A stretch of DNA of 61,208 bases, taken from contig CANQGH010000002.1 in the NCBI GenBank assembly GCA_947601845.1, positions 1-61,208 of the forward strand, read 5' to 3'. Positions 16,097 through 18,489 of this stretch are shown here, in pieces; position 1 is the first letter of the stretch, and each line of letters opens with the position of its first letter. This DNA is from an uncultured Bacilli bacterium (lineage in GTDB: Bacteria; Bacillota_I; Bacilli_A; RF39; UBA660). The position numbers were made by a program, and so were the translations under genes. The notes beneath the pieces were generated by a model. The model worked only from the letters and a program-made list of their open reading frames with translations, made no database searches and had not been told where the DNA came from.

Positions 16097-17224
16097 CTAA
16101 TTTTTACTGATAGGTTTCCTTTTATAACTATTATCTTCTTCCATAATAAGTGCATAAAGTTTATCAACTTTCGTTTCTAATTTTAATAGCTCTGCATACT
16201 TTTTTTCATAATTAGTAATAATAGGGATTTTGAGTTCTTTTTTAATACTATTTAAGTATTTTTTTCCTTGATTGTTAAAACCCAGTACTCTAATATATTT
16301 TAATGTTAAGTGGCAAGCCTCTTCTTTAGTAAGACCACATAGTATATGGGTTGCCATACGTTGTAATTTGTTATAAGTATATCTTTTGGTTTTTATTTTT
16401 AGTATTAATTCATCAATGGTGTTAACTTCATCGATAAACTTAAGAATTCGATTATGTAAGCCTTCATCGACAGTTTGATACTTGCTAATTCCTTCTTGTT
16501 CAGTTAATATTTTATATTTTAAAAAATTAAAGTAATTATTATTATCTTTTTTATTTTGTAAATAATGATAAGTTTCTTTAGGAACATATTTAACAATATC
16601 AGGATTATGTAAATTTTTCCTAATAGCAGTAGCACTAGCAATATCATTATTTAAATTTAGACTATGATAATCATTTGTTCTTTTTATAGTAACGATTTCT
16701 ATATTAGCTTTTTGTTTTATTATTTCTTTAGTATAAGATAGTCCTAATAAATCATTGGGTAAAGTTATTTCTTGATTAGTTATATCTTTTAGGGCTAAAG
16801 ATAGGGAAGTAGGGTAGTTTTCTCCTTTATCTAAATATGACTTAACTATTTTGTCATAATCTTTATTATTAAGAGCTATATCGGCTAACATTTTTAATTT
16901 ATTAGCATCATTTGATTCACTACCGAAGACAATTGTATCTACCTTTAATTCCTTTAATATAGCAATAGCCCCCTTACTAAATATATCTGATGATTGAGTA
17001 GCATAGATAAAGGGGAGTTCTACTACTAAGTCTACACCATAATTTAAAGCAATATCTGTTTTTTCCCATTTATTTAAAATACTAATTTCACCACGTTCCG
17101 TAAAAGATGAGGACATTACTAAAATAATTAAAGAATCAGGATACATTTCTTTAATTTTATTTAAGTGATATATATGACCATTATGAAAAGGATTATATTC
17201 ACAAATAATACCAATTTTTTGCAT
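16097..17224 (-). CDS. tmcAL: tRNA(Met) cytidine acetate ligase (YlbM/UPF0348 nucleotidyltransferase)
   Basis: N-terminus IGIICEYNPFHNGHIYHL (HxGH nucleotidyltransferase); length 375 aa; SD aaggag. Confidence 0.85.
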   Translation of the reverse strand: MQKIGIICEYNPFHNGHIYHLNKIKEMYPDSLIILVMSSSFTERGEISILNKWEKTDIALNYGVDLVVELPFIYATQSSDIFSKGAIAILKELKVDTIVFGSESNDANKLKMLADIALNNKDYDKIVKSYLDKGENYPTSLSLALKDITNQEITLPNDLLGLSYTKEIIKQKANIEIVTIKRTNDYHSLNLNNDIASATAIRKNLHNPDIVKYVPKETYHYLQNKKDNNNYFNFLKYKILTEQEGISKYQTVDEGLHNRILKFIDEVNTIDELILKIKTKRYTYNKLQRMATHILCGLTKEEACHLTLKYIRVLGFNNQGKKYLNSIKKELKIPIITNYEKKYAELLKLETKVDKLYALIMEEDNSYKRKPISKN

Positions 17225-17381
17225 ATTGATTTCTCCTTTTCCTGTATTATACTATAAATTTTATAAAAAAACAGTTGAAGTGTAAAAAAAGTCATTGACA
17301 AATAAGCTGGAATTTTATAGAATAATAGCTAATTATTACATTAATTTTACATGTTTTGTCAAAATTTGTGTTATAATTTAA

Positions 17382-17410
17382 TTAATAGTACTATCAATGT
17401 ATGGTACAAT
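17382..17410 (+). promoter_or_regulatory. Extended -10 promoter for the leader RNA
   Basis: TGgTACAAT at 17402-17410, with a weak -35 ttaata at 17382-17387. Confidence 0.4.
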
Positions 17411-17416
17411 ATTATT

Positions 17417-17551
17417 GGGAGATGGTAGCCCCAGCCTATCTTCGGCGGCTATAACTTAGTTATAGTACACAAAATAGAAGGCCATTTGCCCAGTTAGTAT
17501 AACAAAATTGGGCTGCTACCAAAGAGGGCTTATTTGGGCTCTCTTTTATTT
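17417..17551 (+). ncRNA. Unclassified structured 5' leader / small RNA ending in an intrinsic terminator
   Basis: Long-range helix GGUAGC (17424-17429) / GCUACC (17515-17520). Perfect hairpin CUAUAAC-UUA-GUUAUAG (17449-17465). Hairpin GCCCA (17488-17492) / UGGGC (17509-17513). Terminator at 17521-17551. Confidence 0.5.
17521..17551 (+). terminator. Intrinsic terminator immediately upstream of the SD of ORF 17563
   Basis: In AAAGAGGGCUUAUUUGGGCUCUCUUUUAUUU, GAGGGC pairs with GCUCUC (including G-U pairs) and a U-rich tail follows. SD gagggg comes 3 nt later. Confidence 0.6.
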
Positions 17552-17562
17552 GAGGGGAAATT

Positions 17563-18144
17563 ATGTTACAAGAATTGATTAATACATTTGAGGCGTTGAA
17601 GAAATATGTTTATATAATTGATAGGGGTAGTTATTCTCCTATAATAATCAAATTTAAGGATGAGCATTTTTATCACTTAATTGGGCTACACAAAACAAAT
17701 ATTGATATGTTTTTCCCAACAAAAATGCATTCTAAAGATAAGCGATATAAACATATCAAGAAAAATATAGAGAAATATGAACATATTATTTTAAATCAAA
17801 CAAAAGATAGAAACTCGTTAGAACTTAGACTTACAACATTCCACCAAATATTAAATCTATTGAGTGGGGAATATAATACTAATTTATACAATTTAAGCAC
17901 AAAAGTACCAGGTAGTATGTATAGTGGAGATTATGGGTTACTTGCTATTTTGGAAAATATATACTGCCTTTTAGGCTTAAGACATGATGCTAACTGTGAT
18001 GGACCGATTTATGTCCCACAAAGTTGGATGGCTAGCAAAAGAGTAAACAAATTGACAGCTGGGAAACCCCCTATGTATTTCAAAAAAATAATTGCTATAC
18101 CAACAAGTATATATTCAAGTGATTATAATGGATTGGGGGTATAA
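17563..18144 (+). CDS. Orphan 193-aa protein; possibly a Barnase/EndoU/RelE-fold (PBECR-like) RNase
   Basis: Good SD (gagggg) and its own terminator. The motif FKDEHFYHLIGLHK recalls PBECR4-type predicted RNases, but this is from memory only and needs an HMM check. Confidence 0.6.
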   Translation: MLQELINTFEALKKYVYIIDRGSYSPIIIKFKDEHFYHLIGLHKTNIDMFFPTKMHSKDKRYKHIKKNIEKYEHIILNQTKDRNSLELRLTTFHQILNLLSGEYNTNLYNLSTKVPGSMYSGDYGLLAILENIYCLLGLRHDANCDGPIYVPQSWMASKRVNKLTAGKPPMYFKKIIAIPTSIYSSDYNGLGV

Positions 18145-18196
18145 AACATAATAAATAATTTACATAACTAATTGTAAAGTATTAACGATATTTTCT

Positions 18197-18227
18197 AATT
18201 ACTAGGTTAATGACTAGTAATTTTTTT
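18197..18227 (+). terminator. Rho-independent terminator
   Basis: aattactag (18197-18205) / ctagtaatt (18214-18222), then ttttt. Confidence 0.7.
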
Positions 18228-18489
18228 AAATCTTTGGTATCATTAATTGTGGAAAATACTTTCATAAAAGAATAGAATATAATGAGGTTTCTAGGTGAGA
18301 AGAGGCGGTAATTTGCAATATTTTTTTTAGTGTTAAACTCGAATAAAAATAAATAAACAATCATCAAGATGTTAAAATTTTATTTTAGGGTTTATTTTTT
18401 TCGACTTTTATGCTAAAATAAACGCGAATATTGAGAAAACCCTTATTATTGCAAAAGTAGTATGAAAAGTAAAATTTGGGAGGAAAAAT

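Follow-up and report, generated by a model that had tools for sequence, protein, structure and literature searches.

A 61,208-nucleotide (nt) stretch of contig CANQGH010000002.1, from an uncultured Bacilli bacterium (the whole stretch is hereafter called the window), carries on its plus strand a compact genetic unit (17405-18228) made of a conserved promoter, a ~130-nt RNA with an intrinsic terminator, an open reading frame (ORF) for a protein of 193 amino acids (aa) and a second terminator. The RNA is real and structured, and it represents a well-supported structured RNA family that is absent from Rfam. It is strictly linked to the downstream gene, which encodes a member of the PBECR4 family of predicted ribonucleases (RNases). 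We lean towards reading the unit as a two-part, type III-like toxin-antitoxin (TA) module, in which the RNA would be the antitoxin and PBECR4 the RNase toxin, with a non-repetitive RNA and a toxin fold that would both set it apart within the class.

Linkage between the RNA and PBECR4 genes

One genome per GTDB species was scanned, and 32 loci encoding relatives of the protein were recovered from uncultured gut Bacilli, 'Tenericutes' and metagenome-assembled genomes (MAGs) of Erysipelotrichaceae. In the GTDB species genomes all 29 close PBECR4 homologues have the RNA 114-241 nt upstream of the start codon and in the orientation of the gene, which settles a doubt voiced in a preliminary description of this DNA, namely that the leader might not be conserved upstream of homologues. 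Among 151 genomes of the order, the RNA is present in eight and PBECR4 in six; all six belong to the eight, with RNA and gene adjacent and in the same orientation in each (6/6). Overall, some 40 of 43 bacterial RNA loci are joined to a PBECR4 gene. The RNA was not found in 137 genomes of other families of the class, and it is single-copy in the 1.46-Mb genome to which the window belongs. At three bacterial loci (L039, L041 and L131) the RNA, complete with promoter and terminator, stands without a PBECR4 gene. A metagenome copy (L136:4737-4870 and downstream) has an intact RNA followed by a PBECR4 gene split into ORFs of 76 and 110 aa, a state suggestive of toxin-gene decay.

The module is mobile, turning up in varied genomic contexts that include prophages. 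No synteny of the flanks, including tmcAL or capsule genes, was found among the relatives, and the settings comprise a prophage, where the module sits between the integrase and the lysis cassette (L208), a site beside an integrase (L209), a viral contig (L052) and, once more, a position before a surface-polysaccharide gene cluster (L206). No candidate for a protein antitoxin emerged: neither the RNA region nor the sequence downstream has a conserved ORF, and each locus has different neighbours.

Structure and conservation of the RNA

The preliminary description had proposed a closing helix (P1), a perfect 7-bp hairpin (P2) and a second hairpin (P3), and all of these were recovered at their original positions (Table 1); its terminator does abut the Shine-Dalgarno sequence of the ORF, hairpin and U-tract ending 5 nt before GAGGGG. 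The architecture was nevertheless incomplete, since a mini-hairpin (17434-17446) and the 5' GGGAG tail also belong to the RNA. The 99-nt core folds at -31.1 kcal/mol (z = -2.86). RNAalifold run on MAFFT alignments missed P1-P3, the variable hairpins being misaligned, and the structure was set by hand and checked by pair counts.

With this hand-set structure (P1, P2, P3 and the terminator), compensatory changes are seen in 18 of 27 base pairs in a 29-sequence alignment. On 54 distinct sequences including phage copies the count rises to 25 of 27, in an alignment that was fitted to the model and leans towards the structure; here, all 10 pairs of the terminator stem covary across relatives. None of 500 shuffles reached the observed pairing values in either alignment, and controls with slid partners were far lower in both, with 32-51% of cells paired against the 91% observed in the 29-sequence alignment. 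A covariation test had been suggested at the outset, and these pair counts support the helices.

Three blocks of the RNA are nearly invariant: the 5' tail (GAC)GGGAG, CCCAGCCUAKCUUCGGCG and AAAAUAGAAG. Both varying positions of the second block fall within the GCC/GGC loop, which favours the mini-hairpin. Two candidate pseudoknot pairings, GGG:CCC and CUUC:GAAG, are 97-99% paired and almost invariant, so that covariation is uninformative about them. The innermost P1 pair (17429/17515), C-G in 37 sequences, is replaced by U.U throughout another 16; this covarying non-canonical pair may mark a tertiary contact.

Covariance models of Rfam 15 gave no match to 17400-17560 at E values up to 10 (including the drum, skipping-rope and DUF3800 motifs, Y RNA and OLE), in agreement with the initial impression that the RNA fits no known class. 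Direct or tandem repeats were not found in 17300-17600. A leader peptide starting at ATG 17422 (10-codon ORF) was considered and rejected: it is not conserved, other copies having TTG or GTA and a stop after five codons.

The PBECR4 protein

The ORF with its FYHLIGLHK block had been noted correctly from the letters, and the guess that its product is PBECR-type was right. Pfam family PF18813 (PBECR4) matches with E = 3.4e-9 and 37.8 bits against a cut-off of 27, residues 3-155 aligning to positions 3-149 of the 188 in the profile. At E up to 10 it is the only family above its Pfam cut-off, the one other row, APC1_3rd, being below cut-off and unrelated; a match to a well-characterised non-nuclease family, which would have counted against the initial reading, was not seen. 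A total of 53 homologues (106-338 aa) were found, and their similar lengths (142-239 aa) indicate that the protein is a solo domain. Solo PBECR versions in phages and mobile elements have already been noted, and it has been predicted that phages inject PBECR domains as RNases directed against host or CRISPR RNAs (Iyer et al. 2017, PMC5512222).

In 51 sequences residues E10, K13, R21, H38, H43, K44, K60, Y62, K63, R89 and Y120 are invariant and S154 is conserved at 90% or more; H38, H43 and K44 lie within the FYHLxGLHK block. According to their published description, PBECR families are BECR RNases that need no metal and share a His and a C-terminal Ser/Thr (PMC5512222). H38/H43 and S154 fit this motif and would be candidates for a catalytic role.

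The AlphaFold (AF2) model is confident (pLDDT 92.6). The top structural rows of an exhaustive comparison with VIA-align are colicin D tRNase, BrnT, a RelE-like toxin, T4 RegB and CdiA toxins, all weak (Z 3.3-2.4), and a Foldseek comparison of the model with the PDB returned nothing below 1e-3; this ranking is consistent with the assignment to the BECR fold and does not prove it. A sequence profile searched against the PDB gave chance matches only, with no ToxN, AbiQ or CptN chain among them. ToxN-type folds are not listed in the fold comparison, which by itself is uninformative on kinship. PADLOC has no family for the 193-aa protein, and PHROGs yielded nothing significant for it.

The same layout across the PBECR4 family

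PF18813 was also searched in 400 Bacillota genomes, and the upstream regions of 13 more distant solo genes were read. All but one of these (12/13) have a promoter-like site, 120-200 nt free of ORFs and a hairpin with a U-run that ends 13-34 nt before the start codon, and clostridial homologues located beside a tRNA gene and an integrase show the same succession of promoter, RNA, terminator and gene. This layout is a trait of the whole PBECR4 family.

The upstream RNAs themselves differ between PBECR4 clades. Exact tandem repeats, a hallmark of type III loci, were detected with Tandem Repeats Finder in L190 (53 nt x 2.1) and L197 (32 nt x 2.2), whereas the two units seen in L199 and in L194 are diverged and their stems compensate. 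L192, L195 and L202 share a common RNA of another type, GGGGUUAGAAAUA...UUACCGUUUAU, a GUCGGGCCAGAGACUAUAAACCUGUCC unit is common to L197, L196 and L199, and L198 and L029 have a divergent member of the RNA studied here. At least four further upstream RNA types can be distinguished in other clades (L192/L195/L202; L190; L197/L196/L199; L191 and L031/L032). The presence of unrelated RNAs, including simple tandem repeats, at the same place in other clades indicates a role defined by the protein and not by a general function of the RNA.

Copies of the RNA in phages

A search with the exact core 17-mer, followed by a covariance model, yielded 30 instances in viral and metagenome contigs. About 10 are of the PBECR4-linked type (>110 bits) and about 20 are more divergent (60-82 bits). 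In the divergent copies, the sequences of P1 and P3 are fully different yet still pair, e.g. AGCAGC/GCUGCU, GGCGAC/GUCGCC and GACAGC/GCUGUC. In the bacterial and the phage group alike, 28 alignment columns are at least 95% identical; the 17-mer is conserved there by ascertainment, while GGGAG and AAAAUAGAAG lie outside the search pattern and are still conserved. A looser viral pattern, ACGGGAG-N7-9-CCAGCCTA, retrieved 41 stretches with one new true member only. Cultured phages and plasmids gave no match (blastn in distant mode, with phage and window copies as queries).

Uncultured phages carry the RNA alone, and they do so in two settings. In the first, the ribosome-binding site of a 275-aa gene (phrog_3314) comes straight after the RNA, with large terminase and portal genes next in line; these packaging-type copies are found downstream of an exonuclease and a polymerase resembling RNA-dependent RNA polymerases. 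The 275-aa gene (L050:5238-6068; equivalents in L054, L049, L075 and L083) matches no Pfam family and occupies the position expected of a small terminase subunit (terS-like). In the second setting, the RNA is located on the same strand inside the tRNA arrays of 80-105-kb phage contigs and ends 6-8 nt before a tRNA. The PBECR4 gene is absent from five phage records (10-104 kb, at most 78% complete), and no second conserved partner gene was seen in phages, the neighbours being homing endonucleases and an NlpC/P60 protein.

Several other elements accompany these copies. Genes for transfer-messenger RNA (tmRNA) are present in contigs with tRNA arrays (L086:7560-7977, plus strand; L117:4241-4601, minus strand), and homing endonucleases of the GIY-YIG, HNH and PD-(D/E)XK types are interspersed among the tRNAs of RNA-carrying phage contigs. 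Two phage contigs have a truncated OLE-like RNA (L056:5177-5380 and L087:1462-1733, both on the minus strand) that covers Rfam OLE positions 279-595 only, at 107-111 bits, and lies a short way downstream of the present RNA and of two tRNAs. OLE RNA has been known from bacteria, and a phage-borne version of its 3' half seems unusual. The genome from which the window comes, a rabbit-gut Bacilli MAG, has a full-length OLE RNA (C21:5780-6369, corresponding to L158:1501-2090; 388 bits). We considered whether the RNA might be part of OLE RNA and rejected this, the OLE consensus lacking its conserved blocks. Four of the phage or metagenome copies (L056, L087, L086 and L100) are preceded, at a distance of ~20-60 nt, by a second conserved hairpin, GUAGAGAGCGUGGCUCUAC; this hairpin may be the end of another conserved element.

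A proposed type III-like module and its alternatives

In a TA module of this kind, a constitutive extended -10 promoter would drive the synthesis of a ~130-nt multi-helix RNA with an invariant core. The intrinsic terminator would halt most transcripts, and the RNA would far exceed the read-through PBECR4 mRNA. PBECR4, as a BECR-fold endoribonuclease related to colicin D, RelE and RegB, would be kept inactive by direct binding of the RNA, possibly after cutting it. Once transcription of the locus stops, e.g. upon phage attack, the RNA would decay and the freed nuclease would cut cellular and phage RNA, whereas free-standing RNA copies in phages would serve as antitoxin decoys. Phages with antitoxin look-alikes are known for ToxIN, and pseudo-ToxI of phage TE reportedly provides an analogy for phage-borne decoy copies. 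Carriage by prophages would point to a role in defence, and the module would probably act in abortive infection or superinfection exclusion. What we infer is that PBECR4 is toxic and acts as an RNase, that the RNA neutralises it and that the phage copies are decoys. Among the three readings offered in the preliminary description, that of a non-repetitive type III-like antitoxin is the best supported, the RNA being found before every close homologue and the layout recurring with unrelated RNAs. A wider version of this idea, which we put forward tentatively and with considerably less conviction, is that the RNA founds a class of phage-borne 'invariant-frame' RNAs that neutralise BECR RNase toxins, expressed by large phages as a general counter-defence from tRNA arrays or as a packaging leader, and that bacteria and prophages use the same RNA as the antitoxin of a fourth type III family unrelated to ToxN, with one complex RNA in place of the repeat array.

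Several observations weigh against a TA module. Every characterised type III antitoxin is repetitive and this RNA is not, the toxin differs from ToxN, and BECR RNases are matched in structure only weakly (Z of 3.3 or less). Five loci have a separate gene promoter, so the terminator does not set the ratio of RNA to toxin in every case. Old and diverse, the phage copies stand beside housekeeping-type RNAs (tRNA arrays) or as the leader of a packaging operon, and the bacterial module is present in only ~4% of the genomes of the order; taken together, the age and diversity of the former and the rarity of the latter suggest that the strict conservation of the core may call for more than a decoy role. 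The RNA may thus have a function of its own.

This last thought leads to an alternative that we regard as unlikely, albeit with appreciable weight. Here, the RNA would be a phage-type stable small RNA with its own role (a translation or processing RNA, a 'frame' RNA of tRNA arrays or a ribozyme), and PBECR4 would be an enzyme that processes or binds it, or a nuclease that targets this class of RNA. With equally limited probability, the pair would then constitute a ribonucleoprotein or a target-sensing defence system and not a toxin with its antitoxin. The phage copies argue for such a role by their position on the same strand in tRNA arrays, close to tmRNA and OLE-like RNAs, or directly upstream of the terS-like, large terminase and portal genes, and by the five incomplete phage records without PBECR4. 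So do the ~28 invariant nucleotides combined with freely exchangeable arms, which are typical of catalytic or ligand-binding RNAs, and the promoter and terminator retained by the three orphan bacterial copies. However, the RNA of bacteria is almost always joined to PBECR4 (~40/43 loci), other PBECR4 clades have quite different RNAs at this place, simple tandem repeats included, and phages offer no second conserved partner gene.

A cis-acting riboswitch or leader, through which a ligand or protein would control read-through of the terminator into the PBECR4 gene, was the first reading of the preliminary description and is now very improbable. The combination of conserved junction nucleotides and variable helices is aptamer-like, the terminator lies directly 3' of P1, and in one phage group the RNA is followed at once by the ribosome-binding site of the next gene. 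The hexamer UGGGCU is indeed present twice, at 17509-17514 and 17535-17540, as had been pointed out, but the switch proposed from it, in which GCCCA would pair with either copy, is specific to the window: the 3' strands of P3 and of the terminator share at least 5 nt in only two of 29 relatives, and a conserved alternative pairing of aptamer and terminator is missing. Furthermore, five loci (L002, L003, L027, L064 and L069) have 100-180 nt after the terminator that hold a consensus-like TTGACA-17-TATAxT promoter of the gene, the three orphan bacterial copies precede a convergent or unrelated gene, some phage copies lie 6-8 nt upstream of tRNA genes, and the conserved GGGAG tail is outside P1. 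Finally, an RNA and a gene that are merely neighbours, i.e. the small RNA plus independent gene also envisaged at first, would agree with the RNA having its own promoter and terminator and occurring without the gene in three bacterial loci and in phages, but strict adjacency in one orientation (29/29 and 6/6) with unshared flanks, and a layout conserved over the wider PBECR4 family, make this the least credible explanation, with hardly any weight left to it.

Comparison with known systems

The type III TA systems ToxIN, CptIN and TenpIN consist of one promoter, an RNA gene, a Rho-independent terminator and an endoribonuclease gene on the same strand (PMC3401426, PMC13682666), and the unit described here is arranged in the same way. 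It also resembles them in having no protein antitoxin and in its patchy distribution on mobile elements and prophages, and other PBECR4 loci (L190, L197) even have tandem RNA repeats. Unlike these systems, which have 2-5 repeats of 34-45 nt, it has a single non-repetitive multi-helix RNA of ~105-130 nt; its presumed toxin is a PBECR4 protein (BECR, RelE/colicin D-like) instead of the ToxN-like fold of all three known families, without a Pfam or PDB sequence match to ToxN, CptN or TenpN; and some PBECR4 loci have a separate toxin promoter. Measured against the definition of the class (Blower 2012), RNA and toxin gene stand behind one promoter without a protein antitoxin and are separated by a terminator, whereas the antitoxin is not a tandem repeat and the toxin is not of the ToxN/CptN/TenpN sequence family. 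As of October 2026, the class comprises ToxIN, CptIN and TenpIN only, all with ToxN-like toxins (PMC13682666, TenpIN cryo-electron microscopy, 2026).

The ORF agrees with PBECR4 as defined by Iyer, Burroughs, Anand, de Souza and Aravind (2017, PMC5512222), scoring above the curated cut-off and having the conserved His and C-terminal Ser. In contrast to the locus described here, no RNA partner or TA layout is described in that domain survey, which is the only account treating PBECR as a family that was found in the literature searched. The unit is most likely an RNA antidote paired with a protein poison, of a kind for which that literature gave no description.

Outside the TA field, the DUF3800-I, drum, skipping-rope and FuFi-1 motifs share with the present RNA a complex conserved structure, an intrinsic terminator and association with one gene family (Weinberg et al. 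2017, PMC5737381). Among those motifs, one protein family can be served by several RNA structures unrelated to each other (PMC5737381); the RNA studied here matches none of the corresponding Rfam models. The copies in phage tRNA arrays are also reminiscent of the small stable RNAs found on the same strand among phage tRNA genes (T4 species 1/2, YrlA-type Y RNAs) and would be released by tRNA processing. Neither in sequence nor through Rfam do they match Y RNA or any other family, and no Ro/Rsr gene was noticed in their vicinity.

Promoters and surroundings of the unit

The unit is flanked by the divergently transcribed tmcAL (16097-17224, minus strand) and by the capsule operon, which runs from 18490. 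This placement had been reported correctly, as had its own extended -10 promoter, recovered here by a consensus scan, and the terminator after the ORF (Table 1). In the proximal -10 element, A-11 (17406) and T-7 (17410) are invariant in 29 relatives, and conservation in the phage copies reaches 5' as far as the predicted start, near 17417. The distal extended -10 element is possibly a second promoter. A conserved inverted repeat with the consensus AAUAAUAGUA...UAUACUAUUA (17381-17398 and relatives) overlaps the proximal -10 and lies 3' of the distal one; it might serve as an operator or, in transcripts begun at the distal promoter, form a hairpin at the 5' end. The window also has a canonical CptIN locus and a defence islet at the far end of the capsule locus, so that defence modules bracket the capsule genes.

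Table 1. Elements of the RNA-PBECR4 unit, in coordinates of the window
Feature	Position	Strand	Remarks
Distal extended -10, TGTTATAAT	17369-17377	+	~35 nt upstream of the proximal one; consensus TGTGnTATAAT kept in most of 29 relatives
Proximal promoter	17382-17410	+	TTAATA (17382-17387), 17-nt spacer, TG-n-TACAAT (17402-17410); -10 at 17405-17410; consensus scan
Non-coding RNA, ~130 nt	17417-17551	+	Fold z = -2.7 to -2.9; covariation in P1, P2, P3 and terminator; no Rfam match; single copy
5' tail GGGAG	17417-17421	+	Invariant; outside P1
P1 closing helix, GGUAGC/GCUACC	17424-17429 / 17515-17520	+	Covariation
CCC junction	between P1 and mini-hairpin	+	Part of the RNA
Mini-hairpin, GCC-UAUCUUC-GGC	17434-17446	+	Nearly invariant
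P2 hairpin	17448-17466	+	Contains the perfect 7-bp CUAUAAC-UUA-GUUAUAG (17449-17465)
A-rich junction with GAAG	17467-17487	+	Part of the RNA
P3 hairpin, GCCCAGUU...AAUUGGGC	17488-17513	+	Covariation
Intrinsic terminator between RNA and ORF	17521-17551	+	Hairpin 17521-17546 and U-tract; -12.8 kcal/mol, z = -3.2; ends 5 nt before the Shine-Dalgarno sequence
Shine-Dalgarno sequence, GAGGGG	17552-17557	+	5 nt before ATG 17563; read from the sequence; GGAGG-like sites at the same place in relatives
PBECR4-family protein, 193 aa	17563-18144	+	PF18813; contains FYHLIGLHK; predicted metal-independent BECR-fold endoribonuclease, presumed toxin
Module-closing AT-rich intrinsic terminator	18197-18228	+	Hairpin 18197-18222, 9-bp stem and U7; -8.9 kcal/mol, z = -3.5

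Significance

If the type III-like reading is true, a single, intricately folded RNA guarding a BECR-fold toxin would broaden what counts as a type III system, a definition that so far rests on three toxin families, one fold and antitoxins made of repeat arrays (PMC13682666), and the PBECR4 domain would gain its first concrete biological context. The occurrence of the same RNA core in phage tRNA arrays and before terminase genes suggests either a natural RNA counter-defence or an unrecognised small-RNA function of phages.

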